The position numbers were made by a program, and so were the translations under genes. From positions 169,663-233,662 of the forward strand of contig JBBFKX010000002.1 of NCBI GenBank assembly GCA_037481815.1: 64,000 bases of DNA, read 5' to 3'. The notes beneath the pieces were generated by a model that was not told where the DNA came from, ran no database searches, and saw only the letters and a program-made list of their open reading frames with translations. The DNA comes from a candidate division WOR-3 bacterium (GTDB lineage Bacteria > Hydrothermota > 32-111). This document shows, piece by piece, positions 765 through 15,044 of the stretch (position 1 is the first letter of the stretch; every line of letters starts with the position of its first letter).

Positions 765-773
765 AGTTCCTCC

Positions 774-1202
774 TTATAATTTTATTTCCACTGGATTCTG
801 TGCTTTATGTTTATGGTTTGAATCGTTGTAAATTTTTAATCTCGTTAACATCTTCCTTCCAAGTTTATTTTTGGGAAGCATCCTTTTCACAGCAAGAGTG
901 ATAACTTTTGATGGATTCTTTTCAAGCATCTCCTTAAGAGTGCTCTCTTTTAGATTTCCAATATAACCTGAATGGGAATAATAGATTTTGTTAGAAAGTT
1001 TATTGCCGGTAACTTTTATATCCTTTGCATTTATAACTATAACACCATCACCATTATCCACATCTGGCTGATAGGTAACTTTGTTTTTACCCATAAGAAT
1101 AGTTGAAATCTTTGTTGACAGACGACCCAAGGTTTTTCCTTTTGCATCAACTATGTACCAGTTATGTTTGATCTCGTTCTCTTTTATTCTCGTCGTTTTC
1201 AT
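774..1202 (-). CDS. rplM: 50S ribosomal protein L13
   Basis: 142 aa. MKTTRIKENEIKHNWYIVDAKGKTLGRLST is a typical L13 N-terminus, and rplM-rpsI is a conserved gene pair. Confidence 0.95.
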   Translation of the reverse strand: MKTTRIKENEIKHNWYIVDAKGKTLGRLSTKISTILMGKNKVTYQPDVDNGDGVIVINAKDIKVTGNKLSNKIYYSHSGYIGNLKESTLKEMLEKNPSKVITLAVKRMLPKNKLGRKMLTRLKIYNDSNHKHKAQNPVEIKL

Positions 1203-1211
1203 TTAAACTCC

Positions 1212-2288
1212 TTACTTCCCCTGTTTTTTTAACTCTTCATATTTCTTGTATTCTTCTTTTGCTTTGTCGTTCATTTTCATTCTCGAATAGCAGTCGGCTT
1301 TTATCAGATAAAGATCGCTTATCTCAATTCCACTTTTGGAGATATATTCATCGATAATTTTTATAGCATCAGCATAATTTTGATTTTTGTAATATGCGAA
1401 TCCCAAGTTCAACATCGATTCAAAATCATCCTCTTTAACCTTCAAAGCGTTCTCAAAGTTAACAACTGCTTCTTTGTAGTTCTTTTTTTCATCAAGATAG
1501 ATTTTCCCAAGTTTGAAAGAAACATCATTTTTGTATGTCGAGAGTTTGGATTTCATGGTTGAATCTGAAGATTCATAAATTTTGTTGAAACTGTTAAAAT
1601 TCTTTATTGCCTCATCAAAATTTTTCTTTGAATATGCTATTTCTCCAAGCCAGTATATGATCTGTGGATTTTCAGCATCTATATCTTTTGCTTTATCCAG
1701 ATACTTCTTTGCTTCATCGAACTTTTCGATTCCAATATAATATTTTGCAACATTGAAAAAGAGTGAAAGATTTTTTGGGTTCTTTGAAACAGATTTTTCT
1801 ATAGTTTTTGTCATGTTCGTTTCATCACCAGTTTCAGCGTAAAGTAGTACAAGATAATCATAGTTTATAGAAGTATCTTTAACTTCCTCCGCTTTTAAAA
1901 GATATTTTTCATACTTTGATTTATTCTCTTTACTATCCTTATTTCTCAAGAAACCCGTTCCCGCATTGAAGAGTACTGGCCAGTAAAATTCAACATTCTC
2001 TTTCATCTCTTTTAAAACTTGTCCTGTAGTATCCTTTTCAAGTGCGATAATAAAATACTCTGATGCTTTATCAAACTCACTCTTTGAACCGTATGCCTTA
2101 CCCATCCAAAGATACGCCTGTGGGTTGTTCGGTTCAAGTTTTATCGCTTCGTTGAACTGAACTATCGCTTTATCAAAATCGTTCTGTTGCATATATATTA
2201 TACCTGATGACATATATTGATTGTTACATCCAACCATAAGTATAACTACCATTGCAACGATTAACAACAAATTAAAAAACCTGTACAT
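1212..2288 (-). CDS. TPR-repeat lipoprotein (predicted)
   Basis: Hydrophobic N-terminus ending VGC (a lipobox-like Cys), followed by repeated TPR-like helical units (AYLWMGKAY.., AIKNFN.., YKEAVVNFENALK..). Only a 9-nt gap to rplM, so probably the same transcription unit. Confidence 0.65.
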   Translation of the reverse strand: MYRFFNLLLIVAMVVILMVGCNNQYMSSGIIYMQQNDFDKAIVQFNEAIKLEPNNPQAYLWMGKAYGSKSEFDKASEYFIIALEKDTTGQVLKEMKENVEFYWPVLFNAGTGFLRNKDSKENKSKYEKYLLKAEEVKDTSINYDYLVLLYAETGDETNMTKTIEKSVSKNPKNLSLFFNVAKYYIGIEKFDEAKKYLDKAKDIDAENPQIIYWLGEIAYSKKNFDEAIKNFNSFNKIYESSDSTMKSKLSTYKNDVSFKLGKIYLDEKKNYKEAVVNFENALKVKEDDFESMLNLGFAYYKNQNYADAIKIIDEYISKSGIEISDLYLIKADCYSRMKMNDKAKEEYKKYEELKKQGK

Positions 2289-2327
2289 TTAAAACCTCCT
2301 GAAAAAAGAGCAGAATTTTAGTTTTTC

Positions 2328-2355
2328 ATTTTATCAAAAAAAAGTTTTTTGTCAA
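2328..2355 (-). promoter_or_regulatory. Sigma-70-like promoter: TTGACA, 16-nt spacer, TAAAAT, read on the minus strand
   Basis: Reverse complement of 2328..2355 reads TTGACAaaaaacttttttttgaTAAAAT. It sits in the 108-nt gap upstream of the TPR-lipoprotein/rplM/rpsI/rpsB run. Confidence 0.4.
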
Positions 2356-2396
2356 TAGTAAGAAGAAAGAGGTATACAATAATATCTTTTTAATAA

Positions 2397-2867
2397 TTAC
2401 CGAAACAGGTTATCAATTATGTTGTCAACTTGATTTTTGAAATCTCTGTCAAAAGTTATTTTTTCATCCTCCTCTTCCTTCATAAGTTTAACTATATTCT
2501 CACTTAATTTTTTCATCATCGTTTGAACAACTCCTATTATGGTATCTTTTGAAAAAAGAGAAACTATAATTATCTCATCGTTTACTGCAAGATAAAAAAA
2601 GGAAAATTTTTTTCCTTCCTGAAAGAGTGTAAAAAAATAATCCTCTTTAACAAGTTTTGCGATACTTTTTGTTGCATTGAAAATTCCAGCACATAAGGCA
2701 CCTAACGATTGAGTGTAATAGTTATCCTTTTTCATACCCATCTGAAAAAGCACCTGACCTGCACTATTTATAATAAGAACATTCAGGACCTTTGTATCCT
2801 GAATGAATGTCTTCAAAAACCGTTCAACATCTTTGACGGTTGGCTCATCAAGAACAAGTTTTTTCAT
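2397..2867 (-). CDS. Roadblock/LC7-like (MglB-like) domain protein, divergent, 156 aa
   Basis: Residues 28-52, VLNVLIINSAGQVLFQMGMKKDNYY, then ..SLGALCAGIFNA.., resemble the Roadblock fold pattern. No P-loop. Last gene of the che/Roadblock operon. Confidence 0.45.
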   Translation of the reverse strand: MKKLVLDEPTVKDVERFLKTFIQDTKVLNVLIINSAGQVLFQMGMKKDNYYTQSLGALCAGIFNATKSIAKLVKEDYFFTLFQEGKKFSFFYLAVNDEIIIVSLFSKDTIIGVVQTMMKKLSENIVKLMKEEEDEKITFDRDFKNQVDNIIDNLFR

Positions 2868-2873
2868 AAAATT

Positions 2874-3218
2874 TTATATATTCCCCTGAAGTTGTGCTGC
2901 GATATTTTTTATTTGTATTATCAAAGCCCCAATGTTCACATTCTTTTCAGCAAGAGCAAACAGTATAAACTTTTCTTTTGAAATGAAAAGTACTTCACCT
3001 TTTTCAGTGTATATCGTTGAAAATATTGGAAGGGAGTCGGTACTCTTTCCCAAACTTTTTTCCATCTCACTGTTTATCTTTGCAACCATCGCTCCAAGCA
3101 GTTCCGCCATTTCACTTTCATAGAAAATTTTATCAACGATGAGTCCATCTTTTGTAAGAACAGCAACACCTTTAACTCCAGTTATCTCCATTATCTTCTC
3201 AATTTTCTCTTTTATCAT
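2874..3218 (-). CDS. Roadblock/LC7 domain protein (MglB-like)
   Basis: 114 aa. ITGVKGVAVLTKDGLIVDK...ELLGAMVAKINSEMEKSLG matches the Roadblock/LC7 consensus (xGVxGaxlvdxDGlxx ... laAxxaxl). Its start overlaps the upstream gene by 4 nt. Confidence 0.75.
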   Translation of the reverse strand: MIKEKIEKIMEITGVKGVAVLTKDGLIVDKIFYESEMAELLGAMVAKINSEMEKSLGKSTDSLPIFSTIYTEKGEVLFISKEKFILFALAEKNVNIGALIIQIKNIAAQLQGNI

Positions 3219-3931
3219 TGTTCAAGCACCTGTTTTATATTTTTTAACAACTGTTTCGCTTTTATAAGTATAAGACCTATCTTTACAACCTCTTCAGTGA
3301 AAATCCCCAGTATATATCCATTACCTTTAAAAAGATATATTCTGACTTTTCCAATTTCGATAAAGATCCTGTCTATCAGACCAAGATCGGTTTTACTTAT
3401 AGAATCCTCTGAAACAGAAAAAATCGTCGAAAAAAGTGCAGAGGTGATTTCAGGGTCAAGGTTTTCCAGTATCTTTGCTCTTATAACAAGGCCTGATTCT
3501 TCAATTATGATACTCCCCAAAACTCCATTTATAGAGTTTATCTCTTCAAGCGATCTGTCAAGTAAACTTTCCGCCTCATTTGCGGTTATAACATTGTCCT
3601 TTTCTATCTTTTGCAAATCTTCTTTTTTTATCTCAGAGTTTTTTGAAATCCCACCCTCTTCGACTCTCACAGGTTGTATTAAAGATCTTACCGAAGGATC
3701 ATCGGGAAATTCATTCAAAAGTTGATTCAAAACTTCTGTGGCAGATGGATCGTTCAATTCCTTTAAAGATCTATAAAGCAGAATTTTTGCATCCTTTATA
3801 TCGGGAAATTCTGAAAGAATAAGTTTACAGTAGTTTATAGTTTCGTTGAACGCTTTGTTCTTATAAAGATCCTCAGCGATCATTATAAGTAGTGAAATAC
3901 TATCCCGATCAACTTTCATTCCTTCATTCAA
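3215..3931 (-). CDS. TPR N-terminal region fused to a C-terminal Roadblock/LC7-like domain
   Basis: The N-terminal ~110 aa is TPR-like helical. The C-terminal ~110 aa (INGVLGSIIIEESGLVIRAKI...SALFSTIFSVSED..) is Roadblock-like. Overlaps the upstream gene by 8 nt. Confidence 0.55.
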   Translation of the reverse strand: MNEGMKVDRDSISLLIMIAEDLYKNKAFNETINYCKLILSEFPDIKDAKILLYRSLKELNDPSATEVLNQLLNEFPDDPSVRSLIQPVRVEEGGISKNSEIKKEDLQKIEKDNVITANEAESLLDRSLEEINSINGVLGSIIIEESGLVIRAKILENLDPEITSALFSTIFSVSEDSISKTDLGLIDRIFIEIGKVRIYLFKGNGYILGIFTEEVVKIGLILIKAKQLLKNIKQVLEQ

Positions 3932-5039
3932 ATTTACCTCCTAAAAGTTCATCAAAGATTTTTTGACACTCTTTAAGAGATTCTACAAGTTTTTCAACCT
4001 TACTCATCTGATCCGGTGTTTGGAGATTATCATAAAGAGAAATCAGTTCATCTATACTCTTCTTTACATCTCCCCTTTTAAAGTAAGCAAAAGAATTATA
4101 CTTTTTTATAAAAGGATCATCGATTCCCTCGTTTTTTGCTATCAGAGTGAACTCGTTTATTTTATCAAACTGATTAGTTGCAAAGAATGAATAAATAAGC
4201 ATTCTGTAAGCATCGAGATTTTTTGGATCCTTTTTAACATAATTTTTCAACTCGTTTATAGCTTTATCGAACAATCCATCATTGAAATAATGTTTTGCAA
4301 CATCAAAACTACTTTCCACATCACCTTTTTGAGCGCCTTCGATAATAACTATACCAAGAGTTATCATTCCATATATCAATTTTGCTATTTCAAACTCATC
4401 ACCATATTTTTCGGCGATATCTTTAATCGTGTTTTTACCATTTATCATCGAAAAAATTTCCCACTCTTTTGGTTTAAGATCCAAAAGGTCCATTTTGTCT
4501 GGATTGTCAGAGATTTTTGGAATCACCGATGAGTTTGGAATCTTTGCGGATAACCTTGACCATTCATCTATTCTTCTTGAGCCCTCCATTATCAAAGATT
4601 CGGTTTTGATTTTGAATTTGAACAGGTTGTCGAGAATGAAATTACCTTCCTCAAATTTGAAATATCCTTCTCTCCATTCAAAAAGTTTGTATATGGTATC
4701 TTCGATTCTGAGTTGTAAAAATTTTCTGAACTCGTTTTCAGTCATAATGTTCATCTTTATTATCTCTTTTGCGATTTCAACATCATCGTTTTGAATTTTG
4801 TTCATTATCCTCTGTTCATAAAATTCTTTGGTTATTTTCCCAGCTTTTATCAAAAGCAAAGGCAAAGTTATCCCTTCCATACTAACATACACAACATTCC
4901 CATTTTCAAAATAAACGTTCGCTTTTTCTTCTTTATTTGAATCTATTTTTAATATTCCACTCTTCTGATTGAAAGATAGTATCTGAAACAGATCTATGAG
5001 ATTCAGTTCACTGATTGGTCCTTCAATAGCCACATCCAC
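3924..5039 (-). CDS. DUF4388 (PATAN-like) domain protein with C-terminal TPR repeats
   Basis: N-terminus GPISELNLIDLFQILSFNQKSGILKID...VYFENGNVVYVSMEG matches the DUF4388 signature (LxDlLQxl...ktGxLxv...gxiyFxxGxivhA). The C-terminal ~120 aa are TPR-like. No nucleotide-binding motif. Confidence 0.6.
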   Translation of the reverse strand: MDVAIEGPISELNLIDLFQILSFNQKSGILKIDSNKEEKANVYFENGNVVYVSMEGITLPLLLIKAGKITKEFYEQRIMNKIQNDDVEIAKEIIKMNIMTENEFRKFLQLRIEDTIYKLFEWREGYFKFEEGNFILDNLFKFKIKTESLIMEGSRRIDEWSRLSAKIPNSSVIPKISDNPDKMDLLDLKPKEWEIFSMINGKNTIKDIAEKYGDEFEIAKLIYGMITLGIVIIEGAQKGDVESSFDVAKHYFNDGLFDKAINELKNYVKKDPKNLDAYRMLIYSFFATNQFDKINEFTLIAKNEGIDDPFIKKYNSFAYFKRGDVKKSIDELISLYDNLQTPDQMSKVEKLVESLKECQKIFDELLGGKFE

Positions 5040-5041
5040 TC

Positions 5042-7750
5042 CTATTCAAAAATTGATATCCAGTTTCTTGCTGCTTCTATCGCTTTTGCGCTCTTCTGTG
5101 CAAATTCTGATTCAGGTGAATTCTTTACAACAAAATTCCACCTTTCCATAGCTTCCTTAATATATCCTTCCTTTGCTATTATCTTTGCAAAATTGAAATT
5201 CGCTTCAGGATTTGCGGGATCTATTTTTAGAGCGTTTTGATAAGCATCCTTTGCAACATCAAAATTTTCGATCTCCTGACAGACCGAACCTATTCTTAAA
5301 AATGCTCTGAGGTTGTTTGGATCAATCTGAACAATTCTTGTATAGATCTGAATAGATTTTTCAAAATCCTCGACTAATTCATAGATCGTTGCAAGTTCCC
5401 ACAAATAACCAAGATTCTCTACATCTTTACTTATCAACGATTCAAGAATTTTGATCGATTCATCGTACATTTTCATACTTCTTAAAACTATCGCTTTTTT
5501 GTAAAGGATATCTAGATTCTCTGGATCCTTATTCAGGATTCTTTCGTATATTTCGAGTGCATCCCTATCTCTTCTCTGACTGACATATATTTCAGAGAGA
5601 TTCGTTAGAGTTTCAATATTTTCAGGATCCTTTAAAAGTATCTCACCGATAATTTTTATCGCCTCTTCAAGGTTTCCATTTTTCCAGAGTAACATCGAAT
5701 ATAGATTCAAAACATCTATTTTATTTCTATCCTTTTCAATTATCTTTGAAAGATATTCTATCGGTTCTGAATAGATCCCTTTGTTATAGAGTAGTTTGGA
5801 GAGTTTTAAAACCACTTTTTCGTTAAGAGGAGAGAGCGAAACTATTTTTCGATAATACTCTTCTGCTTCTCCATAGATCTGTTTTATATTGTAAACATCA
5901 GCGATTATTTCAAACATTTCCACATCGCACTCATCTTTTCTTACAACTTCAAAAGCACTCTGTGAAGCAAGATCATATTCACCCTTTTCAAAATATTCTT
6001 TTGCTTTTTTTCTCTTCTCCTCAAGTTGATCGACTTCCTTTAATTTAAGATCCTCTTTTTCAAAAGTATCCTCTGTTTCCTCTTCAAAAACACCTGTAAA
6101 AATATCTGAACTCTTCTCTTCTCCGATTGTGAAACCTTCTAGTTGTTCTGATGATGTAACCTGAACATCCTTTGACAGACTACCACTTATCAAAACATCC
6201 ACTTTATCTGCGTAATAGTCAAGTCCAAGTTTATATCTTGTCTCAACATAATAGGGATTAAGTTTTAATGCTTCTTTCGTATATTTGAGTGCATCCTCAT
6301 ACCTTCCAACTTTTGTTAAGGTGAAAGCAAGGTTGTAGTATGCCTCAGCGAAATTTTCATCATACTGGATCGCTTTTTCAAAAACTTTTATCGCATCCTC
6401 AAATTTTCCTTCCTCTCTATAGATTATTCCAAGATAATTGTATGTTAAAGGATAATCACCTTTTATCTCAAGAACTTTATCGATATATTTTTTCGCCTCT
6501 ATAAAATTTTTATTTTCGATAAAGATTATCGATAGATTCAAAAGAGCATCAACATAATCATCCCTTATCTGTAAAGATTTGTTAAACATTTTTAATGCTT
6601 CATCCGTCTTATTTTTATGAAGCATTGCGATTCCAAGGTTATTGTATGCCATCACATATGATGGATCCATCTTTATAGATTTATTATAACAATCTATCGC
6701 ATTTTCAAGTTCACCTTTTCTGTGAAAAGCGATACCCATATCGTTGTACGCTTTTGCTGCAAACGATTCATCTTTAAGTGCAAGTTTGTATTCCTCTATC
6801 GCTTTATCGTTTTCTCCAAGAAGAAGATAGATCTCACCGATCTGAATGTGAATCAGCGCTCGATCCGGCTCAACAGATTCAGCCTTCTTAAACTCTTTTA
6901 GCGCTTCATTGAAAAGCCCTTTGTTCCGAAAACCAATTCCAAGTGTAAAGTATGTTAAAAAACTGTTCGGTTGAATCGAAACATTCGATTCTTCCTGAAC
7001 AAAACTCTGATACATCCCCTGCTGATAAAAATCTATTCCAAGGTTTGCCTGTGTTTTTCCGTAAGCGGGATTCAACTTAATCGCTTTTTTTGTTTCCTTA
7101 ATCGCGTCATCAAAAAGCCCTTTCTCTCCATAAACAAAGCCCAAAAGAAAATGTGCTTCAGCAAGGTTGGGATCGAGTTCAAGAGCTTTTTGGAATTCTT
7201 TTATAGCAGAATCAAGTATTCCCTTGTTATAGTAAACCTCACCAAGCATCGAGTGTATTTGAGCTGAATCGGGCTGTGTTTTTAAAGCTTTTCGATACTC
7301 TTCGATCGAATCATCATACATACCTAAAGATTTATATATCTTCGCAAGGTTCAACCTCGCATCAACAAATGATGGGTTACTCTTTAAAATCTTCTTATAC
7401 TCAGCGATAGCATCAAGCGATTTTCCCATGTTGTTCAAAGCTTCTGCAAGTTTAAACCTTGTGTTCAAATCTTCGGGATTCTTTTCAAGAACTTCTCTGT
7501 ACTCTTTTATCTTTTCATCATACATCCCTGTTTCTTTGTAGATGAGTTCGAGATTCTTTTTCGCCAGGGTAAATTTCGGATCTATCGCAAGTGCTTTTTC
7601 AAGTTCTTCAATCGCTTCATCATAAAGACCTTTGTTGTAATACACAACAGCAAGATTGTTGTGTGCACCAGCATCCTTTGGATCTATCCTCTGGGCGAAC
7701 GACTTTAAAACTCTCTTTTCTGCTTCAGATATTTGAACCTGTTTTTTCAT
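5042..7750 (-). CDS. Large TPR-repeat protein, 902 aa, two TPR arrays separated by an acidic linker
   Basis: Dozens of 34-aa TPR units (..AHNNLAVVYYNKGLYDEAIEELEKALAIDPK.. and others). An acidic low-complexity linker (..EEETEDTFEKEDLKLKEVDQLEEKRKK..) splits the two arrays. Only 5 nt separate it from cheC upstream. Confidence 0.8.
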   Translation of the reverse strand: MKKQVQISEAEKRVLKSFAQRIDPKDAGAHNNLAVVYYNKGLYDEAIEELEKALAIDPKFTLAKKNLELIYKETGMYDEKIKEYREVLEKNPEDLNTRFKLAEALNNMGKSLDAIAEYKKILKSNPSFVDARLNLAKIYKSLGMYDDSIEEYRKALKTQPDSAQIHSMLGEVYYNKGILDSAIKEFQKALELDPNLAEAHFLLGFVYGEKGLFDDAIKETKKAIKLNPAYGKTQANLGIDFYQQGMYQSFVQEESNVSIQPNSFLTYFTLGIGFRNKGLFNEALKEFKKAESVEPDRALIHIQIGEIYLLLGENDKAIEEYKLALKDESFAAKAYNDMGIAFHRKGELENAIDCYNKSIKMDPSYVMAYNNLGIAMLHKNKTDEALKMFNKSLQIRDDYVDALLNLSIIFIENKNFIEAKKYIDKVLEIKGDYPLTYNYLGIIYREEGKFEDAIKVFEKAIQYDENFAEAYYNLAFTLTKVGRYEDALKYTKEALKLNPYYVETRYKLGLDYYADKVDVLISGSLSKDVQVTSSEQLEGFTIGEEKSSDIFTGVFEEETEDTFEKEDLKLKEVDQLEEKRKKAKEYFEKGEYDLASQSAFEVVRKDECDVEMFEIIADVYNIKQIYGEAEEYYRKIVSLSPLNEKVVLKLSKLLYNKGIYSEPIEYLSKIIEKDRNKIDVLNLYSMLLWKNGNLEEAIKIIGEILLKDPENIETLTNLSEIYVSQRRDRDALEIYERILNKDPENLDILYKKAIVLRSMKMYDESIKILESLISKDVENLGYLWELATIYELVEDFEKSIQIYTRIVQIDPNNLRAFLRIGSVCQEIENFDVAKDAYQNALKIDPANPEANFNFAKIIAKEGYIKEAMERWNFVVKNSPESEFAQKSAKAIEAARNWISIFE

Positions 7751-7755
7751 TCAAC

Positions 7756-8373
7756 CTACCTGTTTAAAAAATCGAGAAGTTTCTTTAAAGATATTGGATC
7801 AGGCAAAAGTATTAGATACCCTTTTAACGGATGTGGATCATCCTCAAAAGTGAACTCTGTTTCAACACAGAAAACAACATCCTTGTTCGCACTGAAATCG
7901 ATGTATGCTGAAGTTACTACAGCTGATCCTATATCAATCACAAGATTTGGAACCGATGGTAAAATCAACATGTTCAAAAAATCACTCATCGCTGTAAGAT
8001 ATGAACTTATAACTATGTTTGCAACTTCTTTGATCGCTGATTGTTCTATCTCACTTAAAATCGTTGTCGTTCCAACAGGTTTTCCCATAACCATATCGAC
8101 AAGAAGCATCGATTCATCTCTTGGAAATATCAAAAGTGTTCTACCTGTTAAATCTCCAAGAAATTTCACAAGAACACCTGTTACGATCTCGTCCTGGTTA
8201 TTGATTATCCTGTATATCTCTTCTGAAGATATTATGTGAACTTTTGGAACCGAGACCATTACTCTTTTGTTCACAAGTTGTGAAAGAACGGTCGCAGCAT
8301 GTCCTCCACCAATGTTGGAGATCTCTTTGATTCCATCCAGATGAAAATCTTTTAAGTTGTTAAAATCTATCAT
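7756..8373 (-). CDS. cheC: CheC-family CheY-P phosphatase
   Basis: 205 aa with two CheC-type motifs: DGIKEISNIGGGHAATVLSQL and SEIEQSAIKEVANIV. 3 nt downstream of cheA. Confidence 0.8.
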   Translation of the reverse strand: MIDFNNLKDFHLDGIKEISNIGGGHAATVLSQLVNKRVMVSVPKVHIISSEEIYRIINNQDEIVTGVLVKFLGDLTGRTLLIFPRDESMLLVDMVMGKPVGTTTILSEIEQSAIKEVANIVISSYLTAMSDFLNMLILPSVPNLVIDIGSAVVTSAYIDFSANKDVVFCVETEFTFEDDPHPLKGYLILLPDPISLKKLLDFLNR

Positions 8374-8376
8374 AAA

Positions 8377-10257
8377 TTACCCCTCTTTAGCCATCGAAAC
8401 AACACCTGGAACATCAACTATGAAAGATGGCATTCCGTTGTTTAAAATTGACACACCTGCAAGCCCATGAATACCTGAAAGTATTCCCTTAAGTGGCTTG
8501 ACAACTACCTCTGATTGTTCTAGGAAATTATCCACAAGTATCCCGTATAAAGAATCCTCCACTTCAACAAGAACTATGGAATATTTGTCCCTATCTTCAA
8601 CTTTTTCACATTTAAAAATTTTTGATAACCTTATAAGCGGTATTATTTGATCTCTCAATACGAAGACCTCTTTTTGCATAACCGTAAATATTTCGTTTTT
8701 GTTTATGTCTATCGTCTCCACGATGTGAGTTAAAGGTATTATATAAACTTCACCACTCACCTCGACTATCAAAGTTTTTATTATGGCGAGTGTCAAAGGA
8801 AGTTTTAAAGTGAAAACTGTTCCTTTATCTTTCTGGGACGAAATTTCAAGTGTTCCACCTATCTGTTTTAAAACATTGTAGACAGCACCAACACCCACAC
8901 CTCTTCCTGAAATATCGTTAACCTCTTCTTTGGTGGAGAAACCTTCATTCATTATCAACGAATAGATATCGTTTTCATTTAGATGTTGTAATTTTTCTTC
9001 ATCTATCAAATTTAATGACAATGCTTTTTCTATAATTTTATTTTTATCAAGTCCTTTACCATCATCTGAAACTGTTATCAAAACTCCATTTTTAACCCTT
9101 TTCGCTTCAAGTATTATCGTTCCGGTTTCATCTTTTTTATTTTTTATCCTTTCCTGTTGAGTTTCTATTCCATGATCCACAGCATTCTTCAGAAGATGAA
9201 GCAATGGATCCGCAAGGGAATTCAGAATCGCTCTATCAAGTTCAATATCTCTTCCCTTTATTATAAAATTTACTTTCTTTTTCAACCTGTTTGAAAGATC
9301 CCTGATATACCTTGGATACCTATCAAAAACCTGTCCAACTGGAACCATCCTTATCTTCATTATTTCATCCTGAATATTTGAGATTATCTTTGAAGTTGAG
9401 TTCAGAGAATTTATCAATTCTTCATTCTGTAAAGAGTATGCTATCTGTTGCAACCTCCCTCTGGCTATAACAAGTTCTGAAGCATAGTTCTGGAGATTGT
9501 CAAGGCGTTCGAGTGAAACCTTTATATCCTTTTTTTCTACAACGATTTCCTGATCACTTTTTGCTTCTTCTTTCACAAGGAAAGCATCTTTTATTTCAGG
9601 TATACCTTTAATCTCATCTATAACCTTTTCAATTTCAGTTGTATCTTTTATGTAAAGGGTGATCTCATCTTTAAAATTTTCCTTCATTATCGAATCAAAG
9701 TCCGGATCACTTTTTATGAAAATATTTCTATCCTGAAGATTTTTAATAACGACGAAAGCTCTCGCTGATTTTAAAACAACATCTTCAGAAAAAATTATTT
9801 TTATCGCTTTTTCTGATGATAGAGAAACTTTCTCTATAGGGATCTTTTTTGTTTTTACTTCCTCTATCTTTTTCGTTTCCTTAACGATCTCAGAACCTGT
9901 TTTTATAGATTCAATCACCTTTAAAAAACTTTTTATAATATTTTCATCTACATCTTTTTTATGGACAAGGGATTGTATATAATCTGTCCCCTTTAAGAGT
10001 AGGTCTATAAGTTCAGTGCTTACCTGTAATTTTTCATTTCGTATAAGATCCATAACATCTTCTATCGAATGGGAAATTTTTGTAATCGAAGAATAGCCCA
10101 TTGAAGCTGCCATACCCTTTATCGTATGCATACCCCTAAAAATCGAGTTTATTGCCTCTATATCGTTCATATCCTTTTCAAGTTTCAAAATGGAATCAGA
10201 AACCTGCTCAAGGTACTCTTCAGCTTCACTTATGAACAATTCTTCATAATTTGTCAT
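8377..10257 (-). CDS. cheA: Chemotaxis histidine kinase CheA
   Basis: 626 aa. Hpt domain (FRGMHTIKGMAASMGY), HATPase_c (LLHLLKNAVDHGIE..GRGVGVGAV) and a C-terminal CheW-like domain. Confidence 0.95.
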   Translation of the reverse strand: MTNYEELFISEAEEYLEQVSDSILKLEKDMNDIEAINSIFRGMHTIKGMAASMGYSSITKISHSIEDVMDLIRNEKLQVSTELIDLLLKGTDYIQSLVHKKDVDENIIKSFLKVIESIKTGSEIVKETKKIEEVKTKKIPIEKVSLSSEKAIKIIFSEDVVLKSARAFVVIKNLQDRNIFIKSDPDFDSIMKENFKDEITLYIKDTTEIEKVIDEIKGIPEIKDAFLVKEEAKSDQEIVVEKKDIKVSLERLDNLQNYASELVIARGRLQQIAYSLQNEELINSLNSTSKIISNIQDEIMKIRMVPVGQVFDRYPRYIRDLSNRLKKKVNFIIKGRDIELDRAILNSLADPLLHLLKNAVDHGIETQQERIKNKKDETGTIILEAKRVKNGVLITVSDDGKGLDKNKIIEKALSLNLIDEEKLQHLNENDIYSLIMNEGFSTKEEVNDISGRGVGVGAVYNVLKQIGGTLEISSQKDKGTVFTLKLPLTLAIIKTLIVEVSGEVYIIPLTHIVETIDINKNEIFTVMQKEVFVLRDQIIPLIRLSKIFKCEKVEDRDKYSIVLVEVEDSLYGILVDNFLEQSEVVVKPLKGILSGIHGLAGVSILNNGMPSFIVDVPGVVSMAKEG

Positions 10258-10260
10258 ACA

Positions 10261-10629
10261 CTATTTCAAATTTAAAACTCTGTTGACAGATTCAAGAACC
10301 CTTGATGGTTGAAAAGGTTTAACGACAAAATCTTTGGCTCCCGCCTGAATCGCCTCTACTACAAGCGATTGTTGTCCCATGGCGGAAACCATCAATATCT
10401 TTGCGTTTGGAAACTCTTTTATAATTTCCCTGACAGCATCTATACCTGACATATCAGGCATTATGATATCCATAGTTACAAGATCCGGCTGCAATTCTCT
10501 GTACATCTGCACAGCCTGAGATCCTGTCCCCGCCTCCCCACAAATTTCAAAACCTTCTTTTTTCAGAATATCTGCGATCATTCTTCTCATAAAAATTGCG
10601 TCATCAACTATAAGCACCCTTGTAGCCAT
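10261..10629 (-). CDS. cheY: Chemotaxis response regulator CheY
   Basis: 122-aa single receiver domain. MATRVLIVDDAIFMRRMI...LVTMDIIMPDMSG...MVSAMGQ...KDFVVKPF carries the conserved D-D/D/T-or-S/K positions. Confidence 0.9.
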   Translation of the reverse strand: MATRVLIVDDAIFMRRMIADILKKEGFEICGEAGTGSQAVQMYRELQPDLVTMDIIMPDMSGIDAVREIIKEFPNAKILMVSAMGQQSLVVEAIQAGAKDFVVKPFQPSRVLESVNRVLNLK

Positions 10630-10640
10630 ATTTTTTCCTC

Positions 10641-11039
10641 CTAATTTTTGTTGATAATATTTTTCAAATTTAATATTATAATCTCTTTACCATCTTTTTC
10701 AACAAAACCTTTTATATATTCACCTTCACTCTCTTCATCTTTTACCTTTGAAACGTTTATTATGCCTTCTATTTCATCTATTAGAAGGCCATACTTTTCT
10801 TTGTTTTTTTCACAGATGATTATATAATTTTCCTCAACCTTTTTCATCATTTTCAGTTTTTTCTTCAACGAGATCAAAACAACAACATCTCCCCTTAAGT
10901 TTATTACACTTTCGATATAATCTTCAGCGTTTGGAATTCTAATACCTTTTATTCTCTCATAAATATCTATTATCTCGGATATCTTTATCCCATATATTTT
11001 ACCTTCGATCTTAAACGTTATATACTGTTCATTTTCCAT
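10641..11039 (-). CDS. cheW: Chemotaxis coupling protein CheW
   Basis: 132-aa single CheW-like domain (YITFKIEGKIYGIKISEIIDI...VINLRGDVVVLISLKK). Confidence 0.85.
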   Translation of the reverse strand: MENEQYITFKIEGKIYGIKISEIIDIYERIKGIRIPNAEDYIESVINLRGDVVVLISLKKKLKMMKKVEENYIIICEKNKEKYGLLIDEIEGIINVSKVKDEESEGEYIKGFVEKDGKEIIILNLKNIINKN

Positions 11040-11043
11040 TCTG

Positions 11044-14000
11044 TTAAATCTCCTTCCATGTGAATTCTATTGGAAGAACACTCAAAGGATGCGCATAGAA
11101 ACCATGAACATCGTCATGTATCGCGATCTGCCGATAGTTGTGAGTTAAAAATACCCAGGGTGCATCATCGACAATTATTCTTTCAATATCCTGATACAAT
11201 TTATTTCTTTCTTCAAAATTAGTTGTCATCCTTGCTTTTAAAATGAGATCGTCCACCTGTTTGTTCGAGTAAAAAGAGTTGTTTCCACCATCACCAAAAC
11301 TTTCACTATGGAAAAGTGGATAAACGAAATTGTCAGGTTCACCTGTATCACCAGCCCAACCCATCATAAAAAGATCACATTTCCCGGAGTGCATCCTGTC
11401 AAGAAGTTCCACCCATTTCAAGGGAACTATTTTTATCCTGATACCTATTTCCTGCCACATACTCTGTAAGAGTTCCGCCCTCTTTATAACCCTTTCAGAA
11501 TTTGAACATATCATTTCAAAACTGTGATTTATACCGTTAGGAAAACCGGCTTTTAACATCATCTCTTTTGCTTTTGATGGATTGTAAGGATAACCTTCAA
11601 GAGATTTGTTGTAACATGGAAGTGCTGGGGGAAATACACCTTTTGAAATGATCCCGAGACCAAACATTGTTTCGTTGATGTACCTTGATTTATCGGTAGC
11701 ATAGTTTATTGCTTTTCTTATCTCTTTTGTTAATGTGATCTCATTTTTTCTTGACATGTTGAAACCAACATACTGAACATCAAGAGATGGTATCGTTAGA
11801 ACTTTTATATCAACTCTGTTCTGTTTTTTTAATTTTTCAAGATCCTCAGCGTTTACAGAACAATAATCTATGTTTTTCGCCAGGAGTTCTTCAAACTCAT
11901 CCTCTTCCCTTTTTATCTTTATTTCAACATTTTCAACAAAAGGTTCTCCTCCAAAATAATGTTTGTTGGATTCCATAAGAATCCTTTCATCATCAACATA
12001 TTTTAAAATGAATGGTCCACAACCGATGCAGTTGTTTTTCATCTTTTCATCGGAAAATTTTACCATATCCTTTTTTATTACCGCAAGACATATCACAGCA
12101 AGATTTGATAGGAATGGAATATAAGGATATTCAAGAGTAAACTTTATCGTATGTTCATCGAGTATTTCAATTCCCTCAATATCACGGGCTCTTCTTTTTA
12201 TGTAATTCTGGGCTCCCTTTATCATATTCACAAAAGGAGCGTTTGGAGTTAAAAGAACATTTTTTATGCTCTCTTTCACATCCTCTGCTGTTACAGGTGT
12301 TCCATCATGAAAGTAAGCGTTTTTTCTTAAAAAGAAAACCCACTCCGTTGCATCAGAGTTGATATGCCAGTATTTTGCAAGTGCTGGGATAACACTTGTA
12401 TCCTTTCCAAATCTCACAAGTCCAACATGGATCTGTTGTAAAACTGTATTACTCGTTGAATCACCAACGAGTGCTGGCTGCCAGTGAACGGGCAGGTTGT
12501 TCATTATGAATTTAAACCTATTCTTTTCAGGATCCCTTTTGATTATGAACTTCTCTGAAAATGTTTCCTGTATACCTGAAACCATCTTTAATGACTCTTC
12601 ACTTTTCAAAATATCATTTTTAAAAATCCTGTTAAGTTCATCAGCCATCTGGTTTATTTTTTCAGATTTTGAAATTATGTTCATGTATAGTTTGACAATC
12701 TCATCCTTTAAAATTTCCTGCTGGGTTATGGTATCGTAAATCTCTTTCAAAAGATTTTTAAAATTCACTGCTGAGTCCTTTACATCCTTTACAACCTTGT
12801 TGCTCGTTTCTATTGAGAAAATAATCTTTTCCGCAGAATCGAGTTCTTTATCAACAATGCTTAAAACATCGTGTAAAAGTTTTTCCATATTTTTTACTAT
12901 ATCTTTTATCTCAAGTGAGGCATCAGTTGCTTTTTTTATGAGTTCTTTTGTCTGTGAAACTATAACAACAAGATTCTGTTGATATTTGCCTGATCTTGCT
13001 GCCTCGATCGAAGCATAGAGAGAAAGCAATTTTGTCTGTTCTGAAAGTTCTTTCAATTCTAAACTCGTTTCAAAAATTGATTTCAAATTTTTTGAAATTT
13101 CGTTGAAATCATCTTTAAGATTGACTATCATCTCAAGTGTTTTTTCGATATCATTTTTCACATTAACTACACTCGTTGAGAACTCGTTTACTGCACCAAG
13201 GAGAAGGTTAAGATTATCCTCTATCTCTCCAACATTTTTTAGCATCAACTGTTCACTTTCCTCTATTGATTCGATGGCACCGAAATAGTTTTTAACAACC
13301 TTTGATTGTTCATCGTTTCTTTCGATGAACTCGTTTATAACTCCCATCGTTTGATCTATAATGTTTTTACTGTTTTCAAGGAAAAATTCTATCTTTTTGA
13401 AAATCTTTATCTCTGTTGCTATAGAATTATCTAATGATTTCTTTTCATAAATAAGATCTGACAGAGGTTCAAGTTGTTGCATAAGATTCGATAGTCCAAC
13501 CTTTACATCGGATTGTGTTTTAACCATTGTCATAAGTTTTTCGGTCGACTGTAAAGAAACATCAATTATATTTTGAACACTTTTGTTAAGGTCGTTGATC
13601 AGATTTTTATTTTTATCCTGTATGTTTATATATTCTTTCATCTTGTCCGACTTCAAAACAATATCAGAAAGGTTCATCTCAACATTTTTTAACCTGAAAT
13701 TCAAAAGATCTATGTTTCTTTTTAATGCATCGATTCTGAACTTAATGTTATCGACAGATTCAATAACATTTTCTGTTTTCACTTTTATGTTCTGAATACT
13801 TTCAGGAATCCTTTTTGTTAGATTGAATGTTTTGTTCGCAAGAAGAAGCATCCTGTCAGCGATAACTTCAAAACCTCTTCCACTCTCTCCAGCATGATAC
13901 GATTTTATCCCTGCGTTTCTTGCTGCCGATTCAGTCATCTGTGCTATACCAATTATGATCTCGGTTATTTGACCTATGTGTTTTGAATACTCGTTAAATG

Positions 14001-14382
14001 GTTTTACAATATCGAGAATCTGGGATGAACCACTCGTAAAAATATTCAACTGGTTTATCACCTGATCAAACTCTTTGACACTATTTTTGATACTTTCCGT
14101 TGAGTTTTTTGAATAATCTATTAAAACATCCGCAGCTTCAGAAACTATCTGTATCGAAGCGTAAAGTTTGTTTCCTTTGTCTTCAATCTTTTCTATTTCA
14201 TCAACCAATCCTTTTTCTTCAAATGAAATCGAAGAGAGTATAGAATGTGCGTTTCTGTTTATCTCAAGAAGTTCATCATCATCTATTTTTATAGTTTTCA
14301 AAGCATAGATCAGGGCTGTTGGATCAAATTCCTCTTCCTGTATTACTCCCTTTCTTTTAAAAAAATTGAAGAAAGACACCAT
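11044..14382 (-). CDS. Soluble MCP-like chemoreceptor (about 600 aa of coiled coil/MA domain) fused to a C-terminal family-5 solute-binding protein domain
   Basis: 1112 aa with no hydrophobic TM stretch. N-terminal half: a long coiled coil with an MCP-signal-like tip (HAGESGRGFEVIADRM; a second degenerate copy, ARSGKYQQNLVVIVSQTKEL). C-terminal ~490 aa: SBP_bac_5 hallmarks (VGDSTSNTVLQQIHVGLVRFGKD..IPALAKYWHINSD..FFLRKNAYFHDGTPVTAEDVKESI...YFGGEP). First gene of the che operon. Confidence 0.75.
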   Translation of the reverse strand: MVSFFNFFKRKGVIQEEEFDPTALIYALKTIKIDDDELLEINRNAHSILSSISFEEKGLVDEIEKIEDKGNKLYASIQIVSEAADVLIDYSKNSTESIKNSVKEFDQVINQLNIFTSGSSQILDIVKPFNEYSKHIGQITEIIIGIAQMTESAARNAGIKSYHAGESGRGFEVIADRMLLLANKTFNLTKRIPESIQNIKVKTENVIESVDNIKFRIDALKRNIDLLNFRLKNVEMNLSDIVLKSDKMKEYINIQDKNKNLINDLNKSVQNIIDVSLQSTEKLMTMVKTQSDVKVGLSNLMQQLEPLSDLIYEKKSLDNSIATEIKIFKKIEFFLENSKNIIDQTMGVINEFIERNDEQSKVVKNYFGAIESIEESEQLMLKNVGEIEDNLNLLLGAVNEFSTSVVNVKNDIEKTLEMIVNLKDDFNEISKNLKSIFETSLELKELSEQTKLLSLYASIEAARSGKYQQNLVVIVSQTKELIKKATDASLEIKDIVKNMEKLLHDVLSIVDKELDSAEKIIFSIETSNKVVKDVKDSAVNFKNLLKEIYDTITQQEILKDEIVKLYMNIISKSEKINQMADELNRIFKNDILKSEESLKMVSGIQETFSEKFIIKRDPEKNRFKFIMNNLPVHWQPALVGDSTSNTVLQQIHVGLVRFGKDTSVIPALAKYWHINSDATEWVFFLRKNAYFHDGTPVTAEDVKESIKNVLLTPNAPFVNMIKGAQNYIKRRARDIEGIEILDEHTIKFTLEYPYIPFLSNLAVICLAVIKKDMVKFSDEKMKNNCIGCGPFILKYVDDERILMESNKHYFGGEPFVENVEIKIKREEDEFEELLAKNIDYCSVNAEDLEKLKKQNRVDIKVLTIPSLDVQYVGFNMSRKNEITLTKEIRKAINYATDKSRYINETMFGLGIISKGVFPPALPCYNKSLEGYPYNPSKAKEMMLKAGFPNGINHSFEMICSNSERVIKRAELLQSMWQEIGIRIKIVPLKWVELLDRMHSGKCDLFMMGWAGDTGEPDNFVYPLFHSESFGDGGNNSFYSNKQVDDLILKARMTTNFEERNKLYQDIERIIVDDAPWVFLTHNYRQIAIHDDVHGFYAHPLSVLPIEFTWKEI

Positions 14383-15043: not shown

Positions 15044-15044
15044 A

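Follow-up and report, generated by a model that had tools for sequence, protein, structure and literature searches.

Three tandem Roadblock genes, one of them an mglB orthologue, close a chemosensory operon in a candidate division WOR-3 bacterium

Which cellular system is served by three tandem Roadblock/LC7 genes and an adjoining DUF4388-TPR gene in a candidate division WOR-3 bacterium, and are they part of an MglA/MglB-type polarity switch? The locus was analyzed in a window of 64,000 nt (JBBFKX010000002.1), the positions of which are used for all coordinates. Four open reading frames on the minus strand occupy positions 2397 to 5039, and Pfam, profile, and model evidence bore out the preliminary description of them as three Roadblock proteins of 156, 114, and 238 aa, one fused to TPR, beside a DUF4388-TPR protein. 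They form the distal, 3' half of a chemosensory operon of the WOR-3/TA06 lineage, which comprises ten translationally packed genes in the order soluble MCP-SBP5, CheW, CheY, CheA, CheC, TPR902, PATAN-TPR, TPR-Roadblock, Roadblock, and MglB (Table 1). The intergenic spacing across the ten genes ranges from -8 to +11 nt, and stop and start codons overlap inside the cluster.

Table 1. Features of the chemosensory operon, in window positions
Feature	Position	Strand	Evidence and remarks
MCP-SBP5, 1112 aa, soluble chemoreceptor-like	11044..14382	-	Operon gene 1; two MCP-signalling stretches and C-terminal family-5 solute-binding domain
CheW	10641..11039	-	Pfam CheW in orthologues; weak NCBIfam CheW match; 4 nt from upstream gene
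CheY-type single-domain response regulator	10261..10629	-	NCBIfam CheY_Halo, 120 bits; Response_reg in orthologues
CheA histidine kinase	8377..10257	-	NCBIfam CheA, 440 bits
CheC-type CheY-P phosphatase	7756..8373	-	Pfam CheC, 74.8 bits; NCBIfam CheC_Thtogales, 177 bits
TPR902, all-TPR, 902 aa	5042..7750	-	Pfam, at least 15 TPR_2 stretches; opens the TPR/PATAN/Roadblock/MglB module
PATAN(DUF4388)-TPR, 371 aa	3924..5039	-	Pfam DUF4388, 94.2 bits; AF2 model
TPR-linker-Roadblock fusion, 238 aa	3215..3931	-	Pfam Robl_LC7; 8-nt overlap with PATAN gene
Stand-alone Roadblock (Robl114), 114 aa	2874..3218	-	Pfam Robl_LC7; 4-nt overlap with upstream gene
MglB orthologue, 156 aa	2397..2867	-	Last operon gene; profile match to solved MglB
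Promoter-like site	2328..2355	-	TTGACA-16-TAAAAT and upstream TG, 11/12 matches; consensus match only

The operon co-encodes a Che pathway set of CheA, CheW, CheY, and an MCP-type receptor. In the 1112-aa receptor-like protein, Pfam detected MCPsignal (102 bits, in two stretches) and SBP_bac_5 (273 bits, residues 664 to 1029), and no hydrophobic segment was found (the highest Kyte-Doolittle score over 19 residues was 1.51). At loci L001, L003 to L006, and L212/L213, the cluster begins with the same fusion. The CheY-type protein carries DD at positions 9-10, D54, S82, and K104, and the precomputed Pfam architecture of the CheA orthologues comprises Hpt, P2, dimerisation, HATPase, and CheW-like domains. 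Genes for CheR and CheB were absent from the operon in the window. A 108-nt gap 3' of the MglB gene holds the promoter-like site, which marks the 3' operon boundary; this boundary is backed independently because the genes downstream of mglB vary among WOR-3 loci. The cluster is flanked by recR/dnaX and ribosomal protein genes.

The ten-gene order was kept at eight other WOR-3-type loci with differing downstream flanks. The tandem order of the Roadblock genes was kept in eight WOR-3-type loci at 43 to 94% identity and also in other phyla, and this arrangement is not chance. That the che genes and the Roadblock and PATAN genes are mere neighbours, packed together in a small genome and functionally uncoupled, is highly improbable. 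Small streamlined genomes do pack unrelated genes tightly, the flanking recR/dnaX and ribosomal protein genes would suit such packing, and the Gemmatimonadota form of the module has no che genes immediately upstream; yet the gene order holds even where identity falls to 43% and both flanks differ, codons overlap inside the cluster, Krumholzibacteriota and Edwardsbacteria independently gained or kept the Che-TPR-PATAN-TPR linkage, and the CheR, CheD, and CheB genes absent from the operon sit at the mglA locus of another WOR-3 lineage (L103).

As a family, Roadblock proteins form homo- or heterodimers through an edge strand and helix alpha2. Against the gathering cut-off of 23 bits of Pfam Robl_LC7 (PF03259), the 156-aa protein scored 32.8 bits (residues 18 to 102), the 114-aa protein 31.1 (residues 3 to 89, a match spanning 3 to 89 of 91 positions), and the 238-aa protein 33.1 (residues 127 to 209). 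[quoted passage not shown] Together with the MglB matches given below, profile matches to solved Roadblock or MglB structures were obtained for all three proteins, in agreement with the fold first assigned to them. In the AF2 model of the 238-aa protein the Roadblock part has the topology a-b-b-a-b-b-b-a at low confidence (pLDDT about 45); the top 50 Foldseek matches of this low-confidence part were all Roadblock, LAMTOR, or dynein-LC7. The protein consists of two TPR repeats (residues about 9 to 82), a variable acidic linker (about 87 to 115), and a very conserved Roadblock domain (about 117 to 238), and in the family alignment the ends are conserved and the length of the linker ranges between about 20 and about 100 residues. 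Pfam TPR scores stayed below the cut-off in the window sequence (TPR_19, 23.9 versus 25; TPR_14, 19.7 versus 23.5). The family profile matched consensus-TPR structures (E 4.9e-13, residues 5 to 90), and four to five helices were modelled there at pLDDT 73 to 89; here, as in the 371-aa protein, the TPR part was confirmed by evidence other than Pfam.

The three proteins had been taken for tandem paralogs, but they are not recent ones. Robl114 aligned with the Roadblock domain of the fusion at an hhalign probability of 89% (E 2.2e-6), and MglB is distant from them (hhalign probability 2 to 14%). By these alignments, Robl114 and the fusion domain are the closest paralogues, a related accessory pair, and MglB lies far from both. 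Among the matches of the 114-aa and 238-aa profiles, with E values up to 10, no PDB chain named MglC was found. Kinship with MglC is beyond what sequence alone can settle, because the identity of MglC even to MglB is below 9% (bioRxiv 10.1101/2020.08.27.270058). By analogy with MglC2:(MglB2)2 and Ragulator (PMC10329633), heteromeric Roadblock assemblies are plausible.

The 156-aa protein had been regarded as the most divergent of the three and possibly degenerate. This was reversed, as it is the sole member with clear full-length similarity to solved MglB. Its family profile matched Myxococcus xanthus MglB (6izw_B, 6h5b_B, and 6hjm_A; E 1.6e-19, residues 3 to 155), with residues 3 to 155 aligned to residues 4 to 157 of 6izw_B, including the N-terminal strand and the C-terminal helix, and it matched Thermus thermophilus MglB at E 1e-12. 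It has the C-terminal motif F..E..IDNLF in common with mglA-coupled MglBs. In other phyla, the same profile matched the reading frame immediately upstream of mglA at 76 of 80 loci. The NCBIfam MglB equivalog NF052242, a model built for a narrow clade, gave 52.8 bits against a cut-off of 200 in a full-length match (6 to 155 versus 8 to 160 of 161). On the grounds of full-length similarity and synteny, the 156-aa protein is an MglB orthologue, and the link to MglA/MglB-type polarity made in the preliminary description lay in the right neighbourhood of ideas.

Conservation of the GAP-relevant surface of MglB had been proposed as a check. Asn37 and Arg98 of M. xanthus MglB, which contact switch I of MglA (PMC11016934), are replaced by Ala36 and Glu98 in the 156-aa protein, and the small interface residues Ala64 and Gly68 by Asn64, which is invariant in WOR-3, and Ser68. 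Asn37 and Arg98 are also missing from the mglA-adjacent MglBs of Gemmatimonadota and Edwardsbacteria; because mglA-coupled MglBs lack both, the two residues are not family-defining and the check does not discriminate. The C-terminal helix motif and the alpha2 surface are strongly conserved in WOR-3, and in M. xanthus the C-terminal helix of MglB binds MglA allosterically (PMC11016934, PMC6785124). In the favoured reading, the WOR-3 MglB would act as a GAP on MglA.

In the 371-aa protein, DUF4388, which is the PATAN domain, was detected as PatA_N (PF14332) over residues 6 to 161. The AF2 model (mean pLDDT 88) comprises the PATAN domain (residues 1 to 163), a small alpha/beta middle domain (173 to 234), and a TPR part of seven helices (241 to 366). 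The PATAN part has a beta core with a helical insert at residues 59 to 120 (pLDDT 83 to 97), such an insertion being a trait of PATAN, and the TPR helices superpose on designed 3-TPR proteins (1na0_A, TM 0.83, rmsd 2.4 A; Foldseek). No Response_reg match was found in the protein, the C terminus of which is the 3-TPR domain. Lacking a receiver, PATAN-TPR has no obvious phospho-acceptor link to CheA except through the stand-alone CheY. Its orthologues are 369 aa long; the true start may for this reason lie two codons downstream of 5039. Edwardsbacteria, Gemmatimonadota, and Krumholzibacteriota have homologues that match it in length and architecture. The association of PATAN with MglB homologues and Che-like systems has already been published (PMC4316618; bioRxiv 10.1101/2021.06.11.447907).

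Beyond WOR-3, the last five genes of the operon (TPR902, PATAN-TPR, TPR-Roadblock, Roadblock, and MglB) form a module, directly followed by mglA in Edwardsbacteria and Gemmatimonadota. At one locus of each (L008, Edwardsbacteria; L009, Gemmatimonadetes), the order is TPR~896, PATAN-TPR, TPR-Robl, Robl, MglB, and MglA. PATAN-TPR was located upstream of mglA at 32 of the 58 loci having enough upstream sequence, and orthologues of the TPR protein, about 900 aa long, lie directly upstream of PATAN-TPR at about 30 loci, with phmmer E values of 2.9e-198 in Edwardsbacteria and 1e-90 to 1e-142 at the roughly 30 Gemmatimonadota loci. Linkage of Che genes to PATAN-TPR recurs in Krumholzibacteriota and Edwardsbacteria. 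In the WOR-3 lineage the module is cut between mglB and mglA and set directly downstream of the genes for MCP, CheW, CheY, CheA, and CheC.

No mglA gene was found anywhere in the 64-kb window, nor at any WOR-3 locus within 10 kb of the cluster. Close relatives encode it elsewhere. Four assemblies of 'candidate division TA06 bacterium 32_111', whose che-mglB cluster shares its order and flanks with that of the window, have a Robl114 that falls in the 90% cluster of the window protein (KUK50762, KUK87272, HAF07594, and HCP16145) and also MglA (KUK51521, KUK87644, HAF07483, and HCP17552). In the MglA of close relatives the P-loop is intact, and both the PGQ motif and the intrinsic Arg (in DRTLFFDF) are kept. 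MglA is also encoded in the other WOR-3 lineage (L103), where its gene lies 3' of pilT and is accompanied by CheR, CheD, CheB, and a second PATAN-TPR gene; in close relatives, it overlaps the end of the gene for a pilT-type type IV pilus ATPase. An overlap of mglA with a PilT-family ATPase gene was seen at L189, where a secretin is encoded nearby. A DnaA-like AAA+ protein of unclear role is conserved beside mglA at L008, L009, and L103.

It is quite unlikely that the Roadblock proteins, the MglB-like one included, work without a small GTPase, either as adaptors or a scaffold of a CheA/CheY complex, comparable to CvnB and its histidine kinase in the Streptomyces conservons, or by acting on pilus ATPases through PATAN. 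Such a role would fit the uncoupling of mglA from the cluster at all WOR-3 loci, the loss of the GAP-assisting residues N37 and R98, the histidine kinase in the cluster, and the count of 328 orphans, none characterised, among 749 MglB homologues (PMC4316618). It agrees poorly with the strong conservation in WOR-3 of the alpha2 surface and of the C-terminal helix motif, the latter of which contacts MglA in M. xanthus, with the intact MglA kept by close relatives, and with the orthologous module of sister phyla, which ends with mglA; moreover, neither DUF742/CvnC nor a membrane kinase is present as in conservons.

The locus is best read, with fair probability, as encoding a chemosensory pathway akin to Frz, by which an MglA/MglB polarity switch serving type IV pili would be steered. 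The soluble receptor with its solute-binding domain would control CheA, and CheY-P, reset by CheC, would act on a scaffold of the Roadblock proteins, PATAN-TPR, and the long TPR protein. This scaffold would set where the MglB dimer acts on MglA, and MglA-GTP together with the PATAN/TPR proteins would choose the pole at which the pilus motor ATPases engage, which would set or reverse the direction of twitching. The data show the gene content, the folds, the conservation, the MglB orthology of the 156-aa protein, and mglA and pilT in relatives; the protein-protein contacts, the GAP activity, the target of CheY, and type IV pili as the output are steps that we infer. Against this reading stand the NF052242 score far under its cut-off, the replacement of N37 and R98, the position of mglA apart from the cluster (seen elsewhere in close relatives), the receiver-less PATAN protein, the presence of CheC, and the low confidence of the Roadblock part of the 238-aa model.

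As to the output, the window contains one prepilin peptidase gene and two pilin genes, and it encodes a T9SS C-terminal-sorting-domain protein; flagellar or gliding-motor genes were absent from the window. Che systems containing CheC are typically flagellar. A regulated MglA/MglB switch with an output other than pilus motility, such as gliding or T9SS-dependent movement, flagellar placement, division, or development, is unlikely. CheC, the T9SS-sorted protein, and the DnaA-like protein conserved beside mglA would be in keeping with it, as would the control of gliding by M. xanthus MglA and the different roles of other MglA-family members (PMC4316618). It is opposed by the PilT-family ATPase gene that mglA overlaps or follows at both WOR-3-type loci found, with a secretin nearby, by the pilin and prepilin peptidase genes of a window free of flagellar and gliding-motor genes, and by the binding of PATAN domains to PilB/PilC where tested (bioRxiv 10.1101/2021.06.11.447907). 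In Synechocystis, a PATAN domain that binds PilB1/PilC is the output of Che-like systems (same source), and in M. xanthus MglA recruits PilB through its effector SgmX, a TPR protein (PMC11580455).

Within the Frz-like reading, TPR~900, PATAN-TPR, TPR-Roadblock, and Roadblock could conceivably be the physical adaptor through which CheY-P flips the MglA/MglB switch, with different Roadblock dimers stacked in layers, as in Ragulator, and tied to the pilus motor by TPR and PATAN domains; we put this forward tentatively, as a possibility with the odds against it. If true, it would provide, across a whole group of FCB-related phyla, the step that couples Che to MglA. The FrzX/FrzZ coupling in Myxococcus is still described as acting by 'unknown mechanisms' (PMC10329633).

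Among known systems, the Streptomyces conservons (CvnA kinase, CvnB Roadblock, CvnC DUF742, and CvnD GTPase) likewise combine a kinase, a Roadblock protein, and an MglA-family GTPase in one signalling unit (PMC4316618). Here, in contrast, CheA with CheW, CheY, and CheC replaces the membrane sensor kinase, three Roadblock genes are present, and the GTPase gene lies elsewhere in relatives. Assignment as a Streptomyces-type conservon was rejected, as DUF742 and an adjacent GTPase are lacking and the kinase is CheA. The PatA-type (PATAN-REC) regulators of cyanobacteria and their Tax/Pix systems share the placement of PATAN inside a che-like operon, but PATAN is fused here to TPR and not to a receiver, which leaves no direct phosphorylation, and Roadblock and MglB genes lie alongside. 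A PatA-type regulator was rejected on the missing Response_reg match and the C-terminal 3-TPR domain. With the eukaryotic Ragulator-Rag system (LAMTOR2/3, LAMTOR4/5, and Rag C-terminal domains), the likeness, several different Roadblock-fold subunits encoded or assembled together as a platform for a small GTPase, is at the level of the fold only (14 to 20% identity); LAMTOR and MP1-p14 structures were among the fold matches.

The polarity module of M. xanthus (MglA, MglB, MglC, RomR/RomX, RomY; Frz; SgmX) resembles the locus in an MglB-type Roadblock protein with a C-terminal helix (PMC11016934), in extra Roadblock paralogues that could stack as in MglC2:(MglB2)2 (PMC10329633), and in a Che-type pathway with CheY-like outputs, a long TPR protein, and type IV pilus ATPases as the likely target (PMC11580455). 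It differs in that frz and mglBA are separate in Myxococcus, whereas che and mglB share an operon here and mglA is uncoupled from mglB, lying behind pilT in relatives. RomR, RomX, and RomY were not seen at this locus, and the accessory Roadblock proteins, one of them TPR-fused, have no detectable similarity to a PDB chain named MglC. PATAN-TPR is a fixed member of the module here, whereas the PATAN proteins of Myxococcus, which are uncharacterised, only co-occur with SgmX (PMC11580455). A further precedent, the PATAN-MglB/MglA neighbourhoods of Makarova et al. 2006 and Wuichet and Sogaard-Andersen 2014, also places PATAN next to MglB homologues and Group 1/5 MglA (PMC4316618). Such neighbourhoods, known since 2006, are occasional, unlike the fixed order from TPR~900 through PATAN-TPR, TPR-Robl, Robl, and MglB to MglA in Edwardsbacteria and Gemmatimonadota; this order and the che-linked, mglA-less form of WOR-3 are documented here.

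The four minus-strand ORFs at 2397-5039 were found exactly as given in the preliminary description and are the last four of ten consecutive minus-strand genes with an intergenic spacing of -8 to +11 nt. The 5' neighbors of this operon are recR, ybaB, and dnaX; 3' of mglB, a near-consensus promoter-like site lies in a 108-nt gap, beyond which are the gene for an unrelated TPR lipoprotein and rplM/rpsI. The identical ten-gene order was observed in eight further WOR-3-type loci, where the TPR-Roadblock fusion protein is 43-94% identical. The genes downstream of mglB vary among these loci (an NHL protein and an ABC transporter in some, ribosomal genes in others), which places the 3' boundary of the operon at mglB. 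The N-terminal half of the 1112-aa receptor contains two MCP-signalling stretches and its C-terminus a complete family-5 solute-binding domain (peptide/opine/nickel type); neither a signal peptide nor a membrane segment was found in the protein. MCP-SBP_bac_5 fusions head the cluster in every WOR-3 locus seen.

Features of the window and of the comparison loci
Locus	Feature	Position	Strand	Remark
Window	Operon gene 1, soluble receptor, 1112 aa	11044-14382	-	MCP signalling segments, C-terminal SBP_bac_5
Window	Genes 2-5, CheW, CheY, CheA, CheC, in order		-	
Window	Gene 6, TPR protein, 902 aa	5042-7750	-	
Window	Gene 7, PATAN-TPR, 371 aa	3924-5039	-	
Window	Gene 8, TPR-Roadblock, 238 aa	3215-3931	-	
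Window	Gene 9, Roadblock (Robl114), 114 aa	2874-3218	-	
Window	Gene 10, MglB, 156 aa	2397-2867	-	
Window	GGDEF cyclase	27799-28962	+	PilS-like six-helix membrane domain
Window	Receiver with HD-type phosphohydrolase	28933-30423	-	
Window	PAS/GAF histidine kinase, 1315 aa	30425-34372	-	
Window	881-aa protein	48170-50815	-	Peptidase_C39-like and T9SS sorting domains
Window	Prepilin peptidase	56547-57329	-	
Window	Pilin	59866-60288	-	N-methyl motif
Window	Pilin	60408-60809	-	N-methyl motif
Window	Sigma-54 response regulator	62058-63410	-	PilR-like
Window	Histidine kinase, C-terminal part	63403-63924	-	
L189 (metagenome contig)	mglA	780-1400	-	Start overlaps pilT stop, 8 nt
L189	PilT/PilU-family ATPase	1393-2496	-	
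L103 (metagenome contig)	DnaA-like AAA+	10788-12695	-	
L103	mglA	12692-13294	-	
L103	PilT/PilU-family ATPase	13493-14584	-	
L008 (Edwardsbacteria)	DnaA-like AAA+	9025-10371		
L009 (Gemmatimonadetes)	DnaA-like AAA+	13553-15280		
L097	MglA, C-terminally extended	3387-4865		
L098	MglA, C-terminally extended	6111-7199		
L119	MglA, C-terminally extended	7554-8966		
L136	MglA, C-terminally extended	1641-2675		
L093	MglA	791-1441		
L007 (Krumholzibacteriota)	che operon	720-11125		
L090	che operon with PATAN head	10001-20560		

The Robl_LC7 scores of the 156-, 114-, and 238-aa proteins all exceeded the Pfam cut-off, and each of the three matched solved Roadblock-fold structures by profile; the refuting outcome named in the preliminary description, non-Roadblock folds for at least two of them, thus did not arise. 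The 238-aa protein, the sole Roadblock protein modelled, gave Foldseek matches only to Roadblock, LAMTOR, or LC7 structures; the Roadblock half of its AF2 model had a pLDDT of about 45, and the topology and the unanimous Foldseek family were used from it, not the coordinates. The 156-aa protein, earlier regarded as the most divergent and possibly degenerate member, proved to be the canonical one: its family profile matched Myxococcus xanthus MglB (6izw_B, 6h5b_B, and 6hjm_A) end to end with E of 1.6e-19 and Thermus thermophilus MglB with E of 1e-12. It carries the C-terminal amphipathic helix motif F..E..IDNLF common to the mglA-adjoining MglBs of Myxococcus, Nitrospirota, and others, and in M. 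xanthus this helix of MglB binds MglA at a site distant from the nucleotide pocket (PMC11016934, PMC6785124). In this family, the surfaces corresponding to the MglA contacts of Myxococcus MglB are under purifying selection. The NCBI MglB model matched over the full length with 52.8 bits versus an equivalog cut-off of 200 bits. Similarity and synteny favor the name MglB orthologue for the protein, with the failed equivalog cut-off and the absence of an adjacent mglA as caveats.

The suggested comparison of MglB GAP-surface residues was run and does not discriminate: M. xanthus Asn37 and Arg98 (PMC11016934) are not kept and correspond to Ala36 and Glu98, and since the mglA-coupled MglBs of Gemmatimonadota and Edwardsbacteria also lack both, their absence is no argument against GAP function. 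The interface residues Ala64 and Gly68 are replaced by Asn64, invariant in WOR-3, and Ser68, and Arg115, which contacts MglC, by Gln115. In hhalign comparisons, Robl114 and the Roadblock domain of the fusion were mutual closest relatives (probability 89%, E of 2.2e-6, 31% identity), and MglB was remote from both (probability 2-14%), so the Roadblock set is an old assembly of distinct lineages. On this basis, a recent origin of the set by tandem duplication from a single Roadblock gene was rejected.

The DUF4388 domain of the 371-aa protein, today PatA_N or PATAN, was recovered by Pfam with 94 bits. The TPR parts of this and of the 238-aa protein fell below the Pfam threshold in the window sequence; the earlier assignment was borne out for the 238-aa protein by its family profile, matching consensus TPR structures with E of 4.9e-13, and for the PATAN protein by the seven helices at the end of its model (mean pLDDT 88), which superpose on designed 3-TPR proteins with TM of about 0.8. 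In the Foldseek search of the PATAN-TPR model against PDB, TPR matches dominated and no solved PATAN-like domain surfaced. A PatA-type regulator was rejected, the receiver domain being absent from the protein. Its gene probably starts two codons downstream of the GTG at 5039, because the orthologues have 369 aa and the aligned methionine is window residue 3. The 238-aa fusion comprises about two TPR repeats (AF2 helices at 9-82, well predicted), an acidic linker of about 20 to about 100 residues across orthologues, and an unusually conserved Roadblock domain. Exhaustive phmmer with this domain retrieved only 129 clusters with E ≤ 1e-3 among 1.84 billion representatives, many of them 220-490-aa proteins with a C-terminal Roadblock domain.

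PATAN-TPR proteins of equal length and architecture with 27-37% identity occur in Edwardsbacteria, Gemmatimonadota/Longimicrobiales, and Krumholzibacteriota. The Edwardsbacteria and Gemmatimonadetes loci L008 and L009 share the order TPR protein of ~896 aa, PATAN-TPR, TPR-Roadblock, Roadblock, MglB-like, and a 198-202-aa protein, which judged by its motifs KIVYYGPGR.GKT, DRTLFFDF, YTVPGQ, and QYNKRD is unmistakably MglA. The module is conserved as six genes in other phyla, and the window therefore holds five of the six, without the last gene mglA. The best 80 mglA loci from an MglA-alignment scan of species-representative genomes all belonged to Gemmatimonadota, Myxococcota, and similar; they contained no WOR-3 locus, are uninformative on WOR-3 mglA, and were used for synteny counts. 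Among them, the ORF directly upstream of mglA matched the 156-aa profile in 76 of the 80, extra Roadblock ORFs lay upstream of mglA in 34 of 80, and among the 58 whose sequence extends beyond 4 kb on the upstream side of mglA, 32 loci, the Gemmatimonadota type, also had PATAN-TPR; Myxococcota loci consisted of mglB-mglA only. In about 30 loci, phmmer placed orthologues of the ~900-aa TPR protein immediately 5' of PATAN-TPR (E of 1e-90 to 1e-198).

PATAN proteins were also observed in other che operons. That of Krumholzibacteriota (L007) encodes CheR, MCP, CheW, CheD, CheB, CheA, CheC, and CheY, then a 605-aa TPR protein and PATAN-TPR; Roadblock genes are absent after PATAN-TPR there, so the che-to-PATAN link can exist without the Roadblock set. 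A different che operon, L090, has a 538-aa PATAN protein at its head, with receiver, CheA, AAA ATPase, two CheW, zinc-ribbon receiver protein, HEAT-repeat protein, CheR, and CheB, and type III CRISPR-Cas genes adjoin. The two most distant PATAN matches, P0128 and P0129, were neither from WOR-3 nor at a locus with mglA; the P0129 locus is another PATAN-che operon.

By tblastn, MglA was absent from the 64-kb window and from all WOR-3 che-mglB loci compared. That the Roadblock proteins are adaptors independent of a GTPase, one way to read a cluster without mglA, is considered quite improbable. WOR-3-type mglA was sought in metagenome contigs with an MglA motif using AGR arginine codons, which favors AT-rich genomes, and the proteins of mglA contigs were matched by exact sequence to public records and their 90% clusters. 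Contig L189 (GC 0.33, the same as the window) encodes a secretin, TPR protein, EF-P, PilT-family ATPase, and MglA. Contig L103 (GC 0.30) encodes a PilT-family ATPase, MglA, DnaA-like AAA+ protein, 534-aa PATAN-TPR, CheR, CheD, CheB, and a TPR protein, and the 90% clusters of six of its genes found by exact sequence include NCBI proteins named candidate division WOR-3 bacterium. CheR, CheD, and CheB, the adaptation genes missing from the window operon, are thus at the mglA locus in L103; in L008 the three come after a second PATAN-TPR gene, on the 3' side of mglA. The mglA gene comes immediately after the PilT/PilU-family ATPase gene in both loci of WOR-3/TA06 type that were found, a pairing other than the classical mglBA operon.

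The L189 MglA is recorded as MglA protein of candidate division TA06 bacterium 32_111 (KUK51521, KUK87644, HAF07483, and HCP17552), and the 90% cluster of Robl114 includes a Roadblock/LC7 family protein of the same name (KUK50762, KUK87272, HAF07594, and HCP16145). Since the four accession series of one list recur in the other, we infer from accession blocks and organism name that the same TA06 32_111 assemblies hold both genes. The che-mglB cluster of a TA06 32_111 relative has the order and flanks of the window. Because such relatives of this MAG carry mglA together with a che-mglB cluster like that of the window, the lineage appears to have an mglA that is separated from mglB and linked to pilT. 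The MglA of the relatives retains the intrinsic arginine and glutamine.

Further features of mglA loci were recorded. In WOR-3, Edwardsbacteria, and Gemmatimonadetes, mglA is separated from a second, longer PATAN-TPR gene (about 535 aa) by a conserved gene for a DnaA-like AAA+ protein of 448-635 aa; the L103 and L009 proteins contain two ATPase-like regions. On several low-GC metagenome contigs, without adjoining mglB, MglA carries long (150-300 aa), acidic, partly repetitive C-terminal extensions. The records of the L093 MglA 90% cluster name Candidatus Desulfofervidus auxilii and 'Methanoperedenaceae archaeon GB37/GB50' MAGs; this mixed naming looks like binning carry-over between syntrophic partners and not archaeal MglA. 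In the window itself, type IV pilus-type genes, all on the minus strand, are located about 50 kb from the che-mglB cluster, and there is a block of second-messenger and sensing genes. The 881-aa protein has a T9SS C-terminal sorting domain, indicating a type IX secretion system in the organism. A literature search on WOR-3, pili, and chemotaxis found nothing on WOR-3 motility.

In the mechanism we propose, the soluble receptor would control CheA, and CheY-P, reset by CheC, would act on the Roadblock/PATAN/TPR scaffold, which may position or gate MglB; MglA-GTP with the PATAN/TPR proteins would then select the pole where the pilus motor works. The whole chain is held with somewhat better than even confidence. 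In published work, che-like systems of Synechocystis use PATAN as their output domain, which binds PilB1 and PilC (bioRxiv 10.1101/2021.06.11.447907), the TPR protein SgmX is an MglA-GTP effector bringing PilB to the pole (PMC11580455), and a second Roadblock protein, MglC, binds MglB in a stacked arrangement and connects it to RomR, a contact broken by MglA-GTP (PMC10329633). The proposed link to the type IV pilus motor comes through the PATAN domain; an output other than the pilus is unlikely.

PATAN-MglB neighborhoods were recorded already in 2006 and again in 2014 (PMC4316618), and the association is therefore not new. New, as far as the literature consulted shows, are the fixed six-gene module across several FCB-related phyla, the TPR-Roadblock fusion as its constant member, and the WOR-3 module split from mglA and placed directly downstream of che genes in one operon. 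In WOR-3, one operon joins the che genes and mglB with a fixed set of four accessory genes, the same four that stand ahead of mglBA in Edwardsbacteria and Gemmatimonadota. None of the 'orphan' MglB genes has been characterized (PMC4316618); an 'orphan' MglB can be orphan by gene position only, with its partner GTPase encoded elsewhere. Every carrier found is uncultured, which sets a practical limit. [quoted passage not shown] A conservon-like system was rejected, with neither a DUF742 protein nor a membrane kinase present. We propose that the system may work like Frz-MglA/MglB/MglC and like the PATAN-based che outputs.
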